Part shown: positions 15,800 through 33,341 of the stretch, in pieces
How the letters are laid out: the number at the start of each line of letters is the position of its first letter
Position numbering within the stretch: position 1 is the first letter of the stretch
Made by a program: the position numbers and the translations under genes
DNA from: an uncultured Anaerolineaceae bacterium
Lineage (GTDB): Bacteria > Chloroflexota > Anaerolineae > Anaerolineales > E44-bin32
Length of the DNA: 57,295 nucleotides
Direction: 5' to 3'
NCBI GenBank assembly: GCA_964482355.1
Contig: CAYZXF010000335.1
Location: 1-57,295, forward strand
Notes under the pieces: generated by a model
What the model was told of the DNA's origin: nothing
Databases searched by the model: none
The model's input: only the letters and a program-made list of their open reading frames with translations

Positions 15800-15978
15800 T
15801 TTTCCTCCTCCTCGGGCAACGCTTCCCATTGCCCTTTCGTGAGCCACGTTCGAGCATTACATTCCGAACAAGTGACGCGAACTCGTACCCCGTGCCACAT
15901 TCGTCGATTTTTGCGAAAGGCTAGGCTGCCATCTGGATTTTCATCGGCTACCCAAATATGCGCGCATTCTTCAGTCAC
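15796..15978 (-). CDS. Hypothetical small protein
   Basis: 60-aa ORF within the operon. It contains a CSECN motif. Confidence 0.45.
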   Translation of the reverse strand: MTEECAHIWVADENPDGSLAFRKNRRMWHGVRVRVTCSECNARTWLTKGQWEALPEEEEK

Positions 15979-15981
15979 TTG

Positions 15982-16164
15982 TCAGACCTCCGCTACCGGC
16001 CGCATAAGCTCATAGCGCTCAGGATCATCCCACGCCAACCACATCAGCCAAGCCTCCTGACGACGATAATCCCGCTCAGCACGGGTCATAAACATCGCGT
16101 CCGTTTTCTGCCCCTCCCGCGGCGCCCATAATCCGAGCAACTTCGCCTCGACCAGATCAATCAC
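15982..16164 (-). CDS. Hypothetical small protein
   Basis: 60-aa ORF within the operon. Confidence 0.45.
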   Translation of the reverse strand: MIDLVEAKLLGLWAPREGQKTDAMFMTRAERDYRRQEAWLMWLAWDDPERYELMRPVAEV

Positions 16165-16261
16165 TTGCCATCCTTAGATCAGCCGCTCGATAATCCAAAT
16201 AGATGGGCCTACCGATAACCCGACCAAGAAAAATATGTGCTTTCGTTCAATTTTCACTTTT

Positions 16262-19831: not shown

Positions 19832-20053
19832 ATGCACAGAGAAGACCAAACGCGCATTGTTGAGGAAATGTGCAAGGGCTTGCGCGAGACAATGCTCGCC
19901 AAGCTGGACAAAGTCCCGGAGCGCTGGGAGGGCATGGAGTTGCGCGCCCTACTTGCAGACACAGCGCGCGAAAACTTCGTAATTGGCAGGCGAGACAGGC
20001 GGCTCGGCATGTGGAAGGACTACGAAAACGATCGCTTAGTCTTGAATATATAA
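19832..20053 (+). CDS. Hypothetical protein
   Basis: 73 aa with a strong SD (AGGAG). Confidence 0.55.
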   Translation: MHREDQTRIVEEMCKGLRETMLAKLDKVPERWEGMELRALLADTARENFVIGRRDRRLGMWKDYENDRLVLNI

Positions 20054-20254
20054 ATGAAACCAGATGCTTCGACCTACGATCCGCGGCCTGAATACCTGGC
20101 TGAGTTAGTCAAGTCCACCGGGCTAACTCGGCCAGTGCTAGCCAAGCTGCTTGGTGTTGATCAGCGCACGATCCGATACTGGTTGGCCGGCAAGCGCCAG
20201 TTCCCCTACTCGGTGCAATATGCGCTGGAGGTCTTGGTTTTGTCTCCAGATTAG
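20054..20254 (+). CDS. HTH (XRE/Cro-like) DNA-binding protein
   Basis: 66 aa. GLTRPVLAKLLGVDQRTIRYWLAGKR is a typical helix-turn-helix. Confidence 0.6.
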   Translation: MKPDASTYDPRPEYLAELVKSTGLTRPVLAKLLGVDQRTIRYWLAGKRQFPYSVQYALEVLVLSPD

Positions 20255-20278
20255 TGTCTAATTCACTTATGGAGATTA

Positions 20279-20485
20279 GTGAAAAAGATAAAGTCAGGTT
20301 GGCGAGGCAGCGGCAGACGCGGAGAGGATATGCCAACCGCAAAACTATCTACCATCCAAGTTATCGAGATTCGCGAACGCTACGCTATCGGCAAGGTGAT
20401 GCAGAAAGATTTGGCTGCGGAGTACGGCATTAGCAGGGCCCAGATGCACAACATTCTAAACAGAAAGCAATGGACGCACATTTAG
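20279..20485 (+). CDS. Small HTH protein
   Basis: GTG at 20279 is preceded by GGAG. AKLSTIQVIEIRERYAIGKVMQKDLAAEYGISRAQMHNILNRKQWTHI parallels the C-terminal HTH of the HNH protein at 25271-25759. Confidence 0.5.
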   Translation: MKKIKSGWRGSGRRGEDMPTAKLSTIQVIEIRERYAIGKVMQKDLAAEYGISRAQMHNILNRKQWTHI

Positions 20486-20501
20486 TAATTCGACCATACT
20501 G

Positions 20502-20945
20502 CTAGTGTTTTGTATTCAAGCCCGGATCAGCGCCGCTGGTTAGCAACAGCCCCATTTCATAGGCTTCCTTGCACTCGTCGCTGCACACCACCCACACGGT
20601 TGCTGGGTTCTGCAGCACGTCGACGTCGACCTCGATCGGCTTGTCGCACTGCTCACAGCGCACTTCGATGGTCTGTAACTTGACCCGGCGCTTGTCATCC
20701 GGCACCCGCACCGTGCCAAGCCGATCACCGTCGCGCAGAAGACAATCCCCAGGATTGAGGATAATTTCGAGTCCACCTGGACCGCGGATTCTGAGCTGAT
20801 CGCCGCTCACTTCCAAAACGGCCACATGATCCACGAGCAGCGCGTCGATCTCACTGACGTTATCGACTTTCCACTGGACATTGGGTAGCCCTTTTTGTGC
20901 TGCGGAGAGCTGGCTCAAGTACCGCGACCAGACTGCGCCCACCAA
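20502..20945 (-). CDS. Hypothetical protein with a C-terminal Cys motif
   Basis: 147 aa. It contains CEQCDKP...CSDEC. Confidence 0.5.
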   Translation of the reverse strand: MVGAVWSRYLSQLSAAQKGLPNVQWKVDNVSEIDALLVDHVAVLEVSGDQLRIRGPGGLEIILNPGDCLLRDGDRLGTVRVPDDKRRVKLQTIEVRCEQCDKPIEVDVDVLQNPATVWVVCSDECKEAYEMGLLLTSGADPGLNTKH

Positions 20946-28764: not shown

Positions 28765-29303
28765 TACGCTCCCTTCACCAGCGGCGATTGTTCTCTGCAT
28801 CCCCACGGCTCCAGCTTTTCGCATTGTCCAGGTGAACAGGAGCACCAGTTTACCCTTGCACTAAGCATGGTCTGCAGAGCCTTGAGTGCTTCATCATGGC
28901 TGCCCATCTGTAACATTTCGAATACGCCCTTAACCTCGGGCAATATTTCATCATTGATCGATGGCTGGTAAACAATAGCCCCGGGCCTAACATCCAAGTC
29001 GCCAACTGCAACCGCTTCGAGCTGTACAGGAGGCGGATTCGGCACCACCTTGACGTAGTTCTCAAACTCGAACGCATCGACAATGCTCATGCGGCCATCG
29101 CCATGTTTGACAAGCCACGCAAGATCAGGAATCGGCAGCTCCTCGCCGTTAATCGTGATCCAATTTTGGCCATCAATGGTGAGAAACGCTCGACTGTCCA
29201 GCCACTCAGGCCATAGCTTTTCCTGATAGCGAGATGACTCGGTGATCTGATAACCCTCGATCGTTTCATCACCAATGGTGTAGCGAAAATCTTGGTCAGC
29301 CAT
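28764..29303 (-). CDS. Hypothetical protein
   Basis: The track ORF is 28764-29396. I prefer the ATG at 29303 (MADQDFRYTIGDE...), just inside the ParB-like gene's 3' end. Confidence 0.5.
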   Translation of the reverse strand: MADQDFRYTIGDETIEGYQITESSRYQEKLWPEWLDSRAFLTIDGQNWITINGEELPIPDLAWLVKHGDGRMSIVDAFEFENYVKVVPNPPPVQLEAVAVGDLDVRPGAIVYQPSINDEILPEVKGVFEMLQMGSHDEALKALQTMLSARVNWCSCSPGQCEKLEPWGCREQSPLVKGA

Positions 29304-30027
29304 CGAAATCCCTTTTCGTTTGTTCAAGTGATGGAGTACGGTATGCGATGACCGCGTGCGCTGCCCATGTGGACACATACTCCAAATCCGCGACATCCGC
29401 TTGAGTCAGGTCCAGCCTGAGCGCATCGCCACCCGGATACGGGAAAGCCTTATACAGTGCGTTCGCCTGCCGGAGCTCATCGCGTTCGGTCTCCGCTTGT
29501 GTCGGCTCCGGCTTGGCCGCGCGATTATCGTCCGGGCTTGGCTCCTGAGTAGAGTTGGGGGGTGAATCGTTCACCCCTGGTTCTGCCGCTGCCGCCTGGT
29601 TCGCGATTCGTTGCACCGTGCGCTTGGTAACACAGCAAATATCGGCTTGCTCCTGACGGCTCATTTGGGATATCTGCGGGTCCTTCAGGGCGATCTCAAC
29701 GGCGTTTCGCTTGTCAGCGCTAGTGCGACGCAGGCCGTGCTCGCTGTTCCCACCAAGCGCGTGTATGAGCGCCTCGTGCATGCCGCCTTCGTGGACTTCG
29801 CACTCTATTTCGTCCCGCTCAGCATGGACCGCGGCATAAAGACGGTGAAAACCGCGTGAGAGAATCGTTCTCGAGGAGTCCTTCTCACGAAACACATCGA
29901 TCGGCGGCATAATGGCGCCCGCCTTGATGTCCTCGCAATACTCGTCAATGATGTCCTTGTGCAGCCGGGTGCGAACCTGGGTTTTATCTGATGCCTCTAT
30001 GGAATCGCATTTAAGAAACGTCGCCAC
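29296..30027 (-). CDS. ParB N-terminal-domain protein with an HTH
   Basis: 243 aa. MPPIDVFREKDSSRTILSRGFHRLYAAVHAERDEIECEV is a ParB/Srx-like box. ICCVTKRTVQRIANQ is an HTH. Confidence 0.75.
   Translation of the reverse strand: MATFLKCDSIEASDKTQVRTRLHKDIIDEYCEDIKAGAIMPPIDVFREKDSSRTILSRGFHRLYAAVHAERDEIECEVHEGGMHEALIHALGGNSEHGLRRTSADKRNAVEIALKDPQISQMSRQEQADICCVTKRTVQRIANQAAAAEPGVNDSPPNSTQEPSPDDNRAAKPEPTQAETERDELRQANALYKAFPYPGGDALRLDLTQADVADLEYVSTWAAHAVIAYRTPSLEQTKRDFDG
29559..29577. repeat. Palindrome GGGGTGAA-TCG-TTCACCCC (variant, inside the ParB-like CDS)
   Basis: Read directly. It has the same outer GGGGTGA.../...TCACCCC arms as the 19-mer and encodes GVNDSPP. Confidence 0.35.
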
Positions 30028-30316
30028 CGCTACTCTCCTCAGCTTTTAGCGGTAGCTCCTGCTGGCTGTTGTAAATCCGCTCGAGTTCGGCTTCGTGCTC
30101 ATTCGCAAGATCAGTCACTACTCGATAGCGCAGGCTTTTCGTCTGATTGCTGCAGCTTAACCGCATCACATCATAGGGATTGATCTCGGTTTTGCTCTCT
30201 TTGCAGATGCGCTGGCCAGCCTCACGCATCGCAACGATCATCGCACTCAGTCGCTCATCAGACTGCGCCCGCATACGCTGCCGGAACGTTACTCTTTTCG
30301 CTTTGCTTTTCTTCAT
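30011..30316 (-). CDS. Hypothetical basic protein
   Basis: 101-aa ORF. Confidence 0.5.
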   Translation of the reverse strand: MKKSKAKRVTFRQRMRAQSDERLSAMIVAMREAGQRICKESKTEINPYDVMRLSCSNQTKSLRYRVVTDLANEHEAELERIYNSQQELPLKAEESSGGDVS

Positions 30317-30573
30317 GTCGGATCCCTGTTCAGTAGTTCGTCCTCGGCCGCGGATAGGAAGTCACGGTTTTTCGACTCCAGCACCCTGACCTCCTCGACG
30401 GTCATAGCCTTGCCGTCGTCATGAAATCGGTACTTTGGCAACGGCACCGGGTCTATCTTTTCAACGCGCCAGCGCAAATAGCCCGATGGAATGTCCGTGA
30501 TGTCCTGGCCTTTGTGCTTACCGAAATGGCATTTCACTTCACTCTCCTCATCAAAATAGGGTTCCCGCGACAC
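30313..30573 (-). CDS. DUF3820-like small protein
   Basis: GTG at 30573 is preceded by AGGAAA. HFGKHKGQDITDIPSGYLRWRVEK matches the FGK.KG..l.diP..YL.W pattern. Confidence 0.55.
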   Translation of the reverse strand: MSREPYFDEESEVKCHFGKHKGQDITDIPSGYLRWRVEKIDPVPLPKYRFHDDGKAMTVEEVRVLESKNRDFLSAAEDELLNRDPT

Positions 30574-31143
30574 TTGGCCGCTTTCCTTTGCAACCTTGTT
30601 GGGCGACTACCTCCAACGACATAATGGTCTTGTGGATGCTCCGGCGCACGATTTGTTCACACCCACTAACGTGGTTGGTTTCACGCACCATCGGGCAAGG
30701 ACTGTTTGTCGTGCTCATTAAATTCTGTATTACAGATATACCTCCGGCCCTTCCCTTGTCGGAACCCAAGGTCAGTTGATGCCTTCTCTTGTCGTGCCTT
30801 ACAGGGACCAAGATCAACGGACGGCCGGTAGGTCCTTCCTTGGATTTGTCTCGGTTTGAGTTCACAAACTGCTTTGAAGTGGCACCGGACCCAAAGCCGC
30901 GAGCTTCGGAACGTATCCGGTTGATTGGCGTATATCCGGATTGCCAACCTTGACCACCATCAAAACAGCCTGTTACACGGTCAGACCTCTCCAAAACACC
31001 GCTGGAACGCGGGAAGGTCTTGCAGATTGCAGACGGATTCATGCTAGAATGCCTGCATCTGGTCTCCAAGCCGAGCGCATTACCAGATACGAGGCCCCTC
31101 CCTATTCGCAACGGAGGGGCTTCATTCATTGAGAGTATCGAAA
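30574..31143 (-). other. Unassigned 0.57-kb segment (open 198-codon frame with atypical codons, or a structured RNA/DNA element)
   Basis: The track ORF 30551-31147 spans it with a GTGA overlap onto the HNH stop. The product is Gly/Arg/Ser-rich with no hydrophobic core and carries many AGG/AGA/ATA codons. Numerous local hairpins are present, for example GCCCCTCC-N11-GGAGGGGC at 31094-31120. Confidence 0.3.
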
Positions 31144-31644
31144 TCACGCCGTCTCCGCAATAGAGGTTCGTTGCTTTTCGCGGAACAGCACCTTTTCTGC
31201 GATCGATTTATTTTCGACCGATAGATTACAAGGAAAACAGGCCATAACTAAATTAAATGGATGATTATTACCGCCCTTGCTGATCTCAAGTAAGTGCTCC
31301 AGCGTCAGGATTATTTCCAGCCCACAGAACCAACATGCCGGTCCATCTCTAGCAATAATGGTCCGCTCAAGAACTGTCTTACCTTTACCTGGGCGCTTGG
31401 TTTTATCGCCATCAAGGCCAGACCACGATTTTCTATTGATATAGCAGTCATACGCCTCGGCAAGGGCATCGTCCCAAGTCAAGTTGCCCCGCTTATTTTT
31501 GTAGAGAACCGATATTTGACCACGAACATTAACGCGCAAAACCTCCCACTCATTCGTAGGTGACAATAGTGCGGCACCGTTCCTCGATAGATATTCCCGG
31601 AACTTTTTTAGGCGCAACTGGCTATTGTGGACAGGTATTGTCAT
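31144..31644 (-). CDS. HNH nuclease translationally coupled to the HerA-like ATPase
   Basis: 166 aa. The HNH core is CWFCG...LEHLLEISKGGNNHPFNLVMACFPCN. It has an ATGA overlap with the ATPase stop. It is visibly AT-richer, with ATA/CTA/AGA codons. Confidence 0.7.
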   Translation of the reverse strand: MTIPVHNSQLRLKKFREYLSRNGAALLSPTNEWEVLRVNVRGQISVLYKNKRGNLTWDDALAEAYDCYINRKSWSGLDGDKTKRPGKGKTVLERTIIARDGPACWFCGLEIILTLEHLLEISKGGNNHPFNLVMACFPCNLSVENKSIAEKVLFREKQRTSIAETA

Positions 31645-33341
31645 TCGAAAAACACCGACGCGGCCTTTATGCCGCCATCACGAGCGTAACCATCTGCGGC
31701 ACCGATCGAGCGCAATCGACTCAGCACATTTCCGAAATGACTACTGGTTCGGCTGTAACCTGAACTCACGCATATATCATCCTCAGTGACGCGCGCGCCG
31801 TTCGCTAAAATCAGTACGTCGAGGATTTTGTTCGCTGCGCCACCTAGCTTCGGCCGCAACCATTCCCGCAACTCAGGGCCGGTCGGTTTTTCTTCGGCAA
31901 CCGGACTCATGACCGCTTCGCCAGCCTCAGTAATTCGCCAACCGCTCACCAGGCCAGCGGTACGCAAGCTGCTAATAACGTTACCAAGATGGCTGCTTTT
32001 CGACGAGTAACCGGCATAAAATGACAGCTTATTTTTCGTCGCTTCCTCATCGCGTAACCACCAGAACGCTCGCAGGATGGCCACCTGAGCCTTGCCTAGA
32101 CTATCAATCTGTGGAGGTGCGGCAGAAGACGCATTATGTCCCACGAGGACACCTACTGGAGGTGCAGAGGGCCGCTCTGGCTGAGCAAGTTTTTTCTGTG
32201 TCACTTTCAGCAACGGCGGCACTGGCACATCAGAGTCAGGATTTATCATTTCCAGCAGTTCATTGACATAATTAAAAGCCGATTTTTGCGCGCACTGCAG
32301 CGAACTCACCCGATCCTCGAGCTGACTCACGTACTCGACTAGCTTCGAAGTATTCTCACGCAAAACCTCTAACTCACCGTTATCTCTGTCATTTTTTGAT
32401 AGCTTGATTTCCTTTTCCAGCACGCGAATACGCTGTTTCAATAGCTTCGGGTCAATCTCTTGAGCGCGTTTGATCGTACCGGCCATCTGCTCACGCAATC
32501 TCGATACGTCGACATCGGCCAGGCGGGCTGTCTTGCTTTTCACTGCCATTTTCGGCGTCGATCCAGAATCGAACGTATTACGGCGGCGGAACTTTACCTG
32601 TTTTGTGCATTTCAGAAACTGCGGCGACCACACCCACGCCTCGCCGTTAGCGAGCCCAGGCAGCGTCTTGAGTATGTCGCGAGACTGGTCGTTGTACTTA
32701 ACCCATTCCTCAATCGCCTTGCGATCTTGAGGTCCTGTAGTTCGCATGGCGATCAGGGTCTGTACTTGCGTCAGCACGTTTTTGTTTATCGATGCACTGC
32801 GCTGAGTGATCATCGTCATTCCAAGACCCCGGGCCCGGCCGCGCCGAACGATATTCTCCCACGCACGCAATAACTGCCCCTCATCACGCATCGGTCGCTG
32901 CGGAATGTAGTCGTCAGCCTCCTCAAGGAATAGATGCAGCGGTTCCTCGTTGCGCTTATATAGACGCCGCGAAAAATCGAGTAAAAACTGTTTCTTTGCC
33001 GCCTCGCTATCGAAGTCTGTCAAATCCAAGATGCACGACAGACGCTCATCGACAACGATATCGGCAATCAGGCGACCACCAGTGCGCTCCAACGGCACAT
33101 CGCCGCGCTTTCCGCCGAACAGCGGTATATCAAGACCTGCACCGGAGCCAGTTTTCGACGATCGCATACCCCACCACGATCCAACCGGATCAACGACAAC
33201 GAATGGCAGCTCACGGGCGAACATTTCTTCAGCCATAACGGTCGCAGAATTCGACTTCCCGGCGCCGCGAGCCGCAAGAATCCCGAAAGTTTCAGTGATC
33301 GCCTCATCTGGTATCGAGAAGCCTTTACCGAGATTTAGCAT
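31641..33341 (-). CDS. HerA/FtsK-type P-loop ATPase with two C-terminal winged-helix-like repeats
   Basis: 566 aa. Walker A is GILAARGAGKSN at residues ~20-31, Walker B is LHLFLEEADDY, and ITQRSASINKNVLTQVQTLIAMRT follows. Two ~70-aa repeats are present (YAGYSSKSSHLGNVISSLRTAGLVSGW and SSGYSRTSSHFGNVLSRLRSIGAADGY). Confidence 0.75.
   Translation of the reverse strand: MLNLGKGFSIPDEAITETFGILAARGAGKSNSATVMAEEMFARELPFVVVDPVGSWWGMRSSKTGSGAGLDIPLFGGKRGDVPLERTGGRLIADIVVDERLSCILDLTDFDSEAAKKQFLLDFSRRLYKRNEEPLHLFLEEADDYIPQRPMRDEGQLLRAWENIVRRGRARGLGMTMITQRSASINKNVLTQVQTLIAMRTTGPQDRKAIEEWVKYNDQSRDILKTLPGLANGEAWVWSPQFLKCTKQVKFRRRNTFDSGSTPKMAVKSKTARLADVDVSRLREQMAGTIKRAQEIDPKLLKQRIRVLEKEIKLSKNDRDNGELEVLRENTSKLVEYVSQLEDRVSSLQCAQKSAFNYVNELLEMINPDSDVPVPPLLKVTQKKLAQPERPSAPPVGVLVGHNASSAAPPQIDSLGKAQVAILRAFWWLRDEEATKNKLSFYAGYSSKSSHLGNVISSLRTAGLVSGWRITEAGEAVMSPVAEEKPTGPELREWLRPKLGGAANKILDVLILANGARVTEDDICVSSGYSRTSSHFGNVLSRLRSIGAADGYARDGGIKAASVFFE

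Follow-up and report, generated by a model that had tools for sequence, protein, structure and literature searches.

The window (the whole stretch of DNA analysed, 57,295 nt) comes from an assembly of an uncultured Anaerolineaceae bacterium (GCA_964482355.1, contig CAYZXF010000335.1). On its minus strand, a gene for an HNH endonuclease is followed by an element of about 610 nt and then by a gene for a protein of 74 amino acids (Table 1). A single frame, ORF198, runs open through the element for 198 codons. It starts at a GTG that overlaps the stop codon of the HNH gene as GTGA, just as a preliminary description of this DNA had reported. Annotation of the stretch varies by gene caller, between a hypothetical protein and a gap. 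The preliminary description put nearly all other gaps below about 200 nt; in a crude map of the window that uses open reading frames of at least 80 amino acids, several gaps of 330-490 nt are left.

The extent first proposed for the element, 30574-31143, can be corrected to about 30538-31147. The frame had been described as running 23 nt into the next gene, which assumes that this gene begins at the first in-frame GTG (30573). Homologues and a Shine-Dalgarno (SD) sequence, GAGGAG at 30544-30549, favour GTG 30537 as the probable start; with it, ORF198 stops 13 nt ahead of the next gene. Nucleotide conservation with three relatives (L037, L038 and L048) is block-wise. It opens at (G)UGAUUUCG and closes at the SD sequence and start of the next gene, and the DNA alignment with relatives holds identical blocks of up to 37 bases between diverged stretches. 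The window copy consists of a family core of about 300 nt, an inserted domain of 110 nt and a 3' domain of about 200 nt.

Table 1. Features of the element and its flanking genes in the window.
Feature	Position	Strand	Remarks
HNH endonuclease gene, upstream	31144..31644	minus	Outside the conserved context of the RNA family
ORF198 (run-through frame, 198 codons)	30551..31147	minus	Not conserved as a protein
Whole element	30538..31147	minus	From the GTG overlapping the HNH stop to just short of the next gene's start
Core matched by model R1	30732..31149	minus	130.7 bits, E 2.7e-48; model positions 1-307 spanned fully
5' tail RUGAUUUCG-N-UACUCUC	31124..31147	minus	Conserved; carries the start codon of the run-through frame
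P2 hairpin GAAGCCCCUCC / GGAGGGGCCUC	31091..31123	minus	First hairpin of the preliminary description
P3 UCUGGU/ACCAGA	31058-31087	minus	Length varies among members
P4 UGCAG/CUGCA	31028-31057	minus	Loop bears the AUUAU-like motif of the family
P5 hairpin CCGC-loop-GCGG	30997..31012	minus	Helix 5
Inserted three-way hairpin domain, ~110 nt	30864..30973	minus	Between GACCG and AACUC
P6 CCAAGG/CUUGG around P7 GGAC/GUCC	30808..30843	minus	Conserved GUUGAUC directly after P7
Pseudoknot 5' strand CCGGCC	30823-30828	minus	In the P7 loop
P8 UCC/GGA	30751..30807	minus	Closes the domain that ends in P9; 98.5% paired
P9 hairpin CCUUG/CAAGG	30754-30771	minus	Stem different in nearly every member
Pseudoknot 3' strand GGCCGG (30744-30749)	30741..30749	minus	Continues into GGAGG
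3' extension domain	30550..30740	minus	Common to L037, L038, L048 and the P0119 locus
Next gene, 74 aa	30313..30537	minus	Weak match to the ExoX C-terminal-like QSregVF_b domain

The frame as a protein-coding gene

The 198-codon frame encodes no conserved protein. Its codon usage is unusual: the rare codons counted earlier are all there (AGG 6 and AGA 2, hence 8; ATA 5). The portal gene (540 aa), cited for comparison, indeed has no ATA codon, and its AGR codons number four instead of about three. The codon log-odds of ORF198 is -0.12, as against +0.09 to +0.36 in neighbouring genes, and its GC content is flat over the three codon positions (0.50/0.52/0.55).

Comparison with relatives gives a similar picture. 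Mismatches at codon positions 1/2/3 amount to 44/47/57 and 46/46/46, without the third-position excess seen in two control genes (27/23/89 in the ParB-like neighbour and 19/11/36 in p86). Summed over 17 pairs they are 414/355/400. Indels of 1, 2, 4 and 7 nt occur within the frame, and the register in which it lies on homologous nucleotides varies between members at every anchor column.

Protein searches found only two ORFs among 5.8 billion proteins and four matches among 1.84 billion representatives. Three of the four overlie the same DNA; the fourth, P0120 (684 aa), is spurious, an unrelated repeat protein with chance similarity. ORF198 has no match in Pfam, and AlphaFold2 models it with a pLDDT of 36.

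ORF198 might still be genuine and encode a small, basic, disordered protein, with the RNA pairing described below being secondary. The frame is open in most members of the family, there are coupling signals at both ends, and the peptides are rich in Arg, Ser, Gly and Pro whatever the register. Set against this are the missing third-position excess, the shifting register, the negative codon score, the low pLDDT, the lack of any protein family or Pfam match, and two to four members with stops throughout. This reading is extremely improbable and close to refuted, and the preliminary suggestion of a disordered basic protein as the conserved product falls on the same grounds: no codon periodicity, a register that shifts, and two members with stops in every frame.

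A conserved RNA fold

Very probably, a conserved structured RNA is encoded here, on one strand only. A covariance model, R1, finds 27 distinct copies of it; 24 matches are in ParB-family loci and six more were obtained by a DNA pattern search. The fold has nine nested helices and one pseudoknot. The core, about 300 nt long, consists of a 5' tail, hairpins P2-P5, a conserved junction (GACCG-N-AACUC...AAAUC), P6/P7 and P8/P9; its pseudoknot joins the P7 loop to the 3' tail.

Because stems slide in the alignment and so defeat a column-pair scan, the helices were set by hand and then checked through the model alignment. RNAalifold alone recovered just 26 pairs (first eight sequences). Covariation was counted on the alignment fitted to the model, where P3, P4 and P9 are poorly aligned (51-79% paired); for P3 and P4 this understates the pairing, since the lengths of these helices vary.

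In this alignment 80.8% of cells are paired, compared to 65.9 ± 0.8% in shuffles and 34-47% when the partners are slid. Changes on both sides are found at 37 of the 52 pairs, and in 215 cells as opposed to 87 ± 7 in shuffles. None of 500 shuffles reached the observed values of pairing or covariation. Against shuffles, the folding z-score is -3.1 for the minus strand and -0.74 for the plus strand. G-U pairs are frequent in the helices and, together with the z-scores, mark the minus strand as the structured one. The structured-RNA option of the preliminary description is thus strongly supported, both by covariation in 27 homologues and by strand-specific folding.

The family has no entry in Rfam. 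A scan against Rfam 15, a check proposed at the outset, returned no match for the whole window at gathering thresholds or for 30200-31500 at E <= 10; with the members L072 and L077 it gave only chance matches of 10-16 bits on the opposite strand.

Helices of the core. The core is 283-315 nt long in most members and 418 nt in the window copy, owing to the insert. P2 is the sole strong inverted repeat in a repeat scan of the element; both sides change in six of its seven outer pairs and all four inner pairs, and the outer cells are 92.6% paired. It corresponds to the hairpin GCCCCTCC/GGAGGGGC of the preliminary description, whose named hairpins are all present and lie on helices conserved in relatives. 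For instance, CCTTG/CAAGG is P9, and CCGAAGC/GCTTTGG falls within the inserted domain. P6 is 98.5% paired, with three pairs changed on both sides in 10-15 sequences, and P7 is 99% paired. P8 alternates between UGG/CCA and UCC/GGA among members.

Pseudoknot. Pairing in the pseudoknot reaches 91.4%, and GC<->CG swaps occur in eight and six sequences. Slid controls gave 24-55% at slides of 2-3 columns and at -1, and 73.5% at +1.

Inserted and 3' domains. The inserted domain is present only in the window copy and L038; it is missing from L037 as a clean 114-nt block, and from all other members. Compared with L038, it shows compensatory changes at four pairs (244/273, 245/272, 252/270 and 255/267). 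The 3' extension combines invariant blocks with variable hairpins (UCUG/CAGA, GCACGA/UCGUGC and UGCCC/GGGUG), and seven of its pairs are changed on both sides in an alignment of four sequences only. Within it, CGGCC (30576-30580) is a potential rival for pairing with the pseudoknot's 3' strand.

Partners of the 5' tail. The UACUCUC of the 5' tail has two alternative potential partners, the internal UUUUGGAGAGG (30986-30996) and GAGAGUG in the SD region (30538-30544; alignment columns 17-23 with 621-627). Pairing of this kind is found in a subset of members only, with slight covariation; for the extended members, just four sequences show the pairing between SD region and 5' tail, and covariation there is almost nil. 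A long-range helix that joins the 5' tail to the variable region occurs in five members only and was rejected as a family feature.

Genomic setting and distribution

The element lies near the head of an early operon in a family of phages of about 55 kb, which also carry Erf, YqaJ, a ParB-like protein and a DEAD-type helicase. Members of the RNA family are present in the IMG/VR collection. Relatives of the ParB-like protein fall into 115 clusters, of which about 30 loci were covered; the relatives stem from many different metagenome samples. Among relatives with gene tables the upstream genes are variable, and the HNH gene is not upstream of the RNA. The genes downstream belong to at least eight unrelated families, so the element is not the leader of one particular gene. 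Where a member has the core alone, the next start is 4-21 nt past the 3' strand of the pseudoknot, and GGAG(G) adjoins that strand. No promoter or terminator of the element's own was found beyond chance.

A non-coding RNA linked to the HNH/ATPase pair had been suggested as well. This link is not supported: the pair is missing from those RNA-bearing relatives that have gene tables, and 35 IMG/VR loci that encode the ATPase, used as controls, share the ATPase alone with the window; R1 has no match in any of them.

Among GenBank phages and PLSDB plasmids no DNA match was found, and a DNA search of 40 relatives of the binned genome did not find the segment. Across 150 genomes of the same order, the RNA model matched the window's own contig alone. 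Viral and metagenome contigs scanned with the HNH protein gave nothing, and neither did metagenome contigs scanned with a pattern back-translated from the ORF alignment, or viral and genome contigs searched for exact 20-23-nt blocks of the 3' domain. A looser pattern for the 3' domain gave nine matches, which are due to chance and were rejected by an HMM.

Several known types of element were considered and rejected. A group I intron does not fit, since the genes on either side are intact and vary from member to member, and no Rfam intron model matches. ARAGORN finds no tRNA or tmRNA genes in the window. A small RNA capped by a terminator was set aside, there being no terminator beyond chance.

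The position in the operon can also be read in terms of transcription. The element may fold on the nascent early transcript and act in cis on RNA polymerase, causing antitermination in the manner of the put RNAs of phage HK022. It is the second to sixth item behind a divergent early promoter region, after a small gene of RHH/Cro size, which would suit such a role. However, put RNAs are much shorter, about 70 nt, and untranslated, and polymerase binding would face competition from the ribosomes that apparently cross the present element. Neither downstream terminators nor any similarity to an Rfam antitermination family could be seen. An antitermination element is therefore improbable.

A role in replication would make use of the same neighbourhood, since genes for the ParB-like protein and the helicase are just downstream. 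The RNA could be a primer or form an R-loop, like RNA II of ColE1, or the DNA could fold into a single-stranded origin; origins within open frames have precedent, lambda ori lying in gene O. What argues against both is the composition and fold of the element. Its direct repeats are two-copy only, of 10-13 nt, which also led to the rejection of an iteron origin; its GC content of 0.52-0.53 is that of the flanks; and it has no AT-rich unwinding region. The pseudoknot, the conserved single-stranded junctions and the many G-U pairs typify a folded RNA and not an origin. A replication element is accordingly very unlikely. The preliminary idea of a replication origin or a recognition locus for wHTH repeats has no support, as iterons are absent and the pairing is strand-specific and rich in G-U; the direct repeat TATCCGG(N)TTG on which attention had been drawn is at chance level.

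An open frame through the RNA

When frame 0 is counted from the RTG of the 5' RTGA, the stops in frames 0/+1/+2 number 14/63/73 in 16 members. In most members the RTG frame is thus about five-fold poorer in stops than the other two. In 15 of 21 members this frame stays open along 96% or more of the element, and in a later test set it is open in two of six, with two more open to 70-76%. The frame ends at or beside the start of the next gene, in UGAUG or UGAAUG junctions.

In L071, L074, L075, L077, L084 and L094 the frame stops at 70-76%, within the conserved GUUGAUC. In four members (L068, L076, L089 and L090) it is not open at all; two of these, L089 and L090, carry the RNA in full, with three to six stops in each of the three frames. 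With six to eight members lacking a full-length open frame, run-through is not essential to the RNA. Furthermore, some conserved blocks lack stops in two of the three frames, so that open frames arise by chance more easily than a naive estimate would suggest.

In most members, then, the frame is kept free of stops as if ribosomes must traverse the fold. What selection keeps is the RNA pairing and the open frame, not the peptide. The preliminary argument that the coupling signals speak for translation seems right in that most members keep the frame open.

Another reading is that the RNA works on its own. It may be a free-standing, stable, trans-acting RNA cut from the early transcript, with some factor of host or phage as its target; it might serve, for instance, as a decoy for host defence or to sponge up a host protein. 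On this view the open frame would be a mere by-product of a tightly coupled operon. The plain intergenic copies in L089 and L090, with their stops in all frames, fit this, as does a fold that is kept while both flanking genes vary (at least eight downstream families). Anti-defence genes (Tad2-like and Tad5) are found in the same operon of relatives, and ROOL and GOLLD, other large phage RNAs of unknown function, provide a precedent. A trans-acting RNA is nevertheless unlikely, if far from negligible: a promoter or terminator of its own is not evident beyond chance, no processing signals were identified, and neither the five-fold depletion of stops in the RTGA frame nor the SD sequence adjoining the pseudoknot is explained.

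A proposed translation-coupled gate

Taken as a whole, the explanation proposed here is a conserved folded RNA with translation-operated gating of the next gene, and its chances of being right are about even. The gating step itself, in which the fold gates downstream translation and ribosomes open it, is a tentative suggestion that draws on the positions of the signals.

The folded RNA would conceal the ribosome-binding site of whichever gene comes next. In core-only members the concealed site would be the one that adjoins the pseudoknot's 3' strand or overlaps with it, and in extended members the one able to pair with the 5' tail. Ribosomes finishing the upstream gene could reinitiate at the RTG, traverse and melt the fold, and then pass to the next gene. 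Regardless of which gene follows, the element would thereby gate the early operon in a translation-coupled manner.

A conserved, knotted core of 300 nt is more than simple coupling requires, so the gate is not the whole function. In addition, the conserved core probably serves to bind some factor or plays another role when folded.

A further, rather doubtful possibility is that the element represents a new class of "ORF-shaped" RNA gene. In such a gene the fold would be the conserved product and would be kept translatable in any register, with the passage of ribosomes toggling it between two forms, one folded and functional, the other unfolded and handing translation on to the next early gene. 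If true, this would be a translation-operated timer or switch in early phage development.

Significance

A well-supported RNA family (27 distinct copies, nine helices and a pseudoknot) is added to the few large phage RNAs of unknown function. The pattern of conserved RNA pairing combined with an open frame is beyond what standard annotation can represent. It also serves as a warning: phage ORFs described as "orphan, disordered, basic" may be RNA genes. If the frame stays open for ribosomes to unfold the RNA, the element would offer a direct and testable case of a translation-operated RNA switch within an operon.

Comparison with known systems

Large phage RNAs. ROOL (RF03087) and GOLLD (RF01998) are likewise large and intricate, are borne by phages or prophages, and were seen by covariation alone. 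The present core is smaller (about 300 nt), has no match to any Rfam 15 model at E <= 10, and sits inside an operon and mostly inside an open frame. Fremin, Bhatt and Kyrpides (2023) screened more than 5 million viral sequences for covarying RNAs and reported 10,006 candidates (PMC10690425); the main text of that paper names no such element.

HK022 put RNAs. These are folded RNAs at a similar spot in a phage early operon. The present RNA is four to eight times larger, is apparently translated through, and shows no similarity to them in sequence or by model.

Pseudoknots that hide SD sequences. Examples can be found in the SAM-II and preQ1-II/III riboswitches and in the autoregulation of T4 gene 32, rpsO and the L20 operon, where, as here, the 3' strand of a pseudoknot lies against the next ribosome-binding site. 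Those are short leaders that serve one gene or ligand. The present element is 300-600 nt long, precedes unrelated genes, is read by an open frame and has no known partner or ligand.

Translational coupling. On the proposed reading, the mechanism would resemble the long-range coat-replicase pairing of MS2 and the icd-ant coupling of P1 (controlled by c4 RNA), where upstream translation opens a structure that blocks the next start. The RTGA and UGAUG junctions found here are in keeping with such coupling. In MS2 and P1, however, the upstream frame encodes a real protein, whereas here it is the fold that is conserved and not the peptide.

The open frame and its coding potential

ORF198, the minus-strand frame of 198 codons that runs across the flagged stretch, is not a conserved protein. 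The frame itself is present, and its GTG overlaps the HNH stop codon as GTGA. The rare-codon counts of the preliminary description are also correct (AGG 6, AGA 2 and ATA 5); the portal gene has 4 AGR codons and no ATA. A log-odds score based on codon usage in 14 long genes of the contig puts ORF198 at -0.12 and its neighbours at +0.09 to +0.36. Its GC content by codon position is flat (0.50/0.52/0.55), whereas the neighbours have the usual high-low-high pattern.

A search of 5.8 billion predicted proteins found only two relatives of ORF198. When HMMER was run in full against 1.84 billion representatives, the additional matches were one more such ORF and a repeat protein that is a spurious hit. 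Mismatches to the two relatives are distributed over the codon positions as 44/47/57 and 46/46/46; for comparison, the adjacent ParB-like gene gives 27/23/89, and p86, the next gene downstream, gives 11/8/20 and 19/11/36. Across 17 member pairs of 70-97% identity, the counts are 414/355/400. Indels in the element are of 1, 2, 4 and 7 nt. The homologous ORF P0002 follows the ORF198 register over its first half and that of an 88-aa alternative ORF of the window over its second. Judged from the sequences, this register switch and the pattern of substitutions and indels are not those of protein-gene evolution. AlphaFold2 gave ORF198 alone a pLDDT of 36, which is weak evidence because the run was made without an alignment.

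The 88-aa ORF is in the register used by L048, L049 and P0119 (two related loci and a homologous ORF) on the same conserved nucleotides. Two of the three frames are free of stops in this conserved block.

Homologues of the element

The contigs behind the first two ORF198 matches (L037 and L038) are syntenic with the window, carrying the element, p86, p101 (the gene after it) and the ParB-like gene. Protein identity of the syntenic genes to those of the window is 55-81% and 35-62%. DNA alignment of the element shows identical runs of up to 37 bases between stretches diverged past recognition, and L037 has a clean 114-nt deletion in it.

No further homologues came from searching directly with the segment, with the HNH protein or with exact conserved blocks. 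The ParB-like protein has 115 relatives at E <= 1e-20, many of them on contigs of 54-60 kb. Wherever the region was present on the contig in ten look-ups, an uncalled gap of 290-790 nt was found two to four genes upstream of the ParB-like gene, and an HMM of the first three sequences matched inside these gaps. The element is present in 13 of 15 IMG/VR loci fetched by alignment of the ParB-like protein. A degenerate pattern from a conserved junction found 15 IMG/VR loci, and all six new ones were confirmed by the model.

The common core of the family is 283-315 nt long. An extra domain of about 110 nt occurs in the window and L038, and the window, L037, L038, L048 and the locus behind P0119 have a further domain of about 200 nt at the 3' end. 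More distant members with full-length RNA are found in L090 (5943-6242) and L089 (2350-2662), with a GC content of 0.47 and 0.51. L090 has no ParB-like gene within the locus, and a RecA-dependent nuclease and a wHTH gene lie downstream.

Structure of the RNA

The stretch belongs to a new strand-specific, pseudoknotted RNA family, of which the window's copy is an enlarged member. A structured RNA was one of the identities proposed in the preliminary description, and it is borne out by a strand-specific fold and by covariation above shuffled and slid controls in 27 sequences. Covarying pairs are seen in the homologues, and a third-position excess is absent. Compared with shuffles, the fold has z = -3.1 on the minus strand and -0.74 on the plus strand; these scores, together with the common G-U pairs in the helices, fix the strand. 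Rfam 15 gave no match at gathering thresholds over the whole window or at E <= 10 over the region.

RNAalifold recovered only 26 pairs from eight sequences, so the helices were set by eye from alignments and single-sequence folds. The resulting covariance model, R1, has a 17-sequence seed, 307 positions and 46 pairs. Its 24 matches in ParB-family loci, 21 of them distinct, score 55-275 bits, that in the window 130.7 bits (E 2.7e-48).

In an alignment fitted to the model, with 27 distinct but related sequences, standard pairs fill 80.8% of cells; shuffles give 65.9 +/- 0.8, and sliding the 3' partners by 1-3 columns gives 34-47%. Both sides have changed in 37 of 52 pairs, and cells with such changes number 215 versus 87 +/- 7 in shuffles. 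None of 500 shuffles matches any observed measure. Both the slid controls and the diversity of pair types speak for a genuine signal.

Helix P2 is 92.6% paired, with covariation in six of its seven pairs. P6 is 98.5% paired and has three pairs changed on both sides in 10-15 sequences; P7 is 99% paired; P8 is 98.5% paired and alternates between UGG/CCA and UCC/GGA. The pseudoknot, which joins the P7 loop with the 3' tail, is 89-91% paired, with GC to CG swaps in 8 and 6 sequences. Its versions are CCGGCC:GGCCGG, CGGGC:GCCCG, CCCGC:GCGGG and CCCUCC:GGGGGG. P3, P4 and P9 are of variable length, and R1 aligns them poorly (51-79% paired); set by eye, their stems differ in sequence in almost every member and keep their complementarity.

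A stretch of about 13 nt after P5 (alignment A11, between P5 and AAAUC) occurs in four sequence types. Each occurs together with its own version of a stretch of about 10 nt before AAAUC (e.g. GGUUC with GAACC and GGUCU with AGACU). This association suggests a further helix or tertiary contact.

Genomic context

The window is a contig of a binned genome, taken in full (57.3 kb), and has the appearance of a complete phage. Features around the element are listed in the table.

Features of the element and its surroundings in the window
Feature	Coordinates	Strand	Place in gene order
HerA/FtsK-like ATPase	31641-33341	minus	first
HNH endonuclease	31144-31644	minus	after ATPase
Flagged stretch		minus	between HNH endonuclease and 74-86-aa gene
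ORF198	30551-31147	minus	across flagged stretch
R1 match	30732-31149	minus	
88-aa alternative ORF	30681-30947	minus	
74-86-aa gene, weak ExoX-C-like match	30313-30537/30573	minus	after flagged stretch
101-aa gene		minus	between 74-86-aa gene and ParB-like gene
ParB-like protein	29296-30027	minus	after 101-aa gene

For the next gene, GTG 30537 is the most likely start codon; it is preceded by the putative Shine-Dalgarno sequence GAGGAG (30544-30549), and the first in-frame GTG (30573) is disfavoured. The equivalent site is used by the homologues in L038, L048 and L049.

Neighbours on both sides of the element vary among members. The gene downstream belongs to at least eight unrelated families, none of known function, and in L076 the ParB-like gene follows directly. 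The position of the element is constant: it is always close to the head of the rightward early operon and follows the divergent region between this operon and the Erf/YqaJ genes. At L049 (6709-6984) and L054 (8605-9120), Tad2-like and Tad5 (anti-Thoeris) genes lie beside ParB-like and helicase genes, so the operon is also an anti-defence region.

Promoter-like or terminator-like sites around the element do not exceed chance, and no iterons were found in it. ARAGORN found no tRNA or tmRNA in the window, and R1 found no second copy of the RNA there. Gaps of 330-490 nt occur elsewhere in the window (e.g. 20010-20502 and 15847-16235) on a crude map of ORFs of at least 80 aa.

A link between the RNA and the HNH/ATPase pair, also proposed in the preliminary description, is unsupported because, among the window and the RNA-bearing relatives with gene tables, the pair occurs only in the window. 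R1 has no match in 35 loci sharing the ATPase alone. The pair (31144-33341) looks like a module inserted into the early operon of this phage. Relatives of the ATPase lie on 35 IMG/VR contigs with unrelated neighbours, and its weak PHROG matches include a large-terminase family.

The open frame as an accompaniment of the RNA

The open frame is a frequent accompaniment of the RNA and looks selected. In 16 members with the RTGA motif at the 5' end of the element (5,002 nt), the frame set by RTG has 14 stops, versus 63 and 73 in the other two frames. In 15 of 21 members, 96% or more of the element is covered by one frame, which stops at or next to the start of the following gene, in many cases as UGAUG or UGAAUG.

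The depletion of stops in the RTGA frame holds independent of register, and all three registers of the open frame on conserved columns are represented among the members. The block GACCG-N-AACUC...AAAUCC, for instance, gives DRNSNRDKSKEG in the window and NRPKLRGRQI in L048 and L049, and it is read in another way in L054.

The six members recovered later by the pattern search were used as a test set. The frame is open to 96-99% in two of them. In another two it ends at 70-76%, within the conserved GUUGAUC that directly follows P7, as it does in the L071/L074/L075/L077 clade. The last two, the lower-GC L089 and L090, have 3-6 stops in every frame, and their RNA is a plain intergenic element. Since L089, L090, L068 and L076 lack an open frame, the RNA does not need one.

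A possible role in translation

Among core-only members, 4-21 nt separate the pseudoknot's 3' strand from the start codon downstream of it, and the GGAG(G) ribosome-binding site lies directly against this strand or overlaps it. In extended members (four sequences), the ribosome-binding region of the next gene contains GAGAGUG, to which a conserved 5' UACUCUC is complementary, and CGGCC in the 3' domain is a possible competitor for the pseudoknot 3' strand. Two segments could pair with the 5' tail UACUCUC(AA): an internal UUUUGGAGAGG (30986-30996), found in five members only, and GAGAGUG of the Shine-Dalgarno region (30538-30544). On complementarity, a tail with two candidate partners is the layout of a two-state switch.

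The RNA fold would mask the ribosome-binding site of the next gene. Ribosomes restarting at RTG could then melt the fold and hand translation on downstream. Because plain coupling needs no conserved core of 300 nt, a further function of the folded state is probable; it might, for instance, bind a factor, act in trans once processed, or act on RNA polymerase.

Comparison with known systems

No Rfam family matches the RNA. A 2023 catalogue contains 10,006 candidate phage RNAs (PMC10690425), and the family may be among them. By position, the put RNAs of HK022 are close. The closest kinds include ROOL and GOLLD, which are large phage RNAs of unknown function, and the known pseudoknots that hide a ribosome-binding site. 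Another is structure-mediated translational coupling, as found in MS2 and P1 icd-ant.
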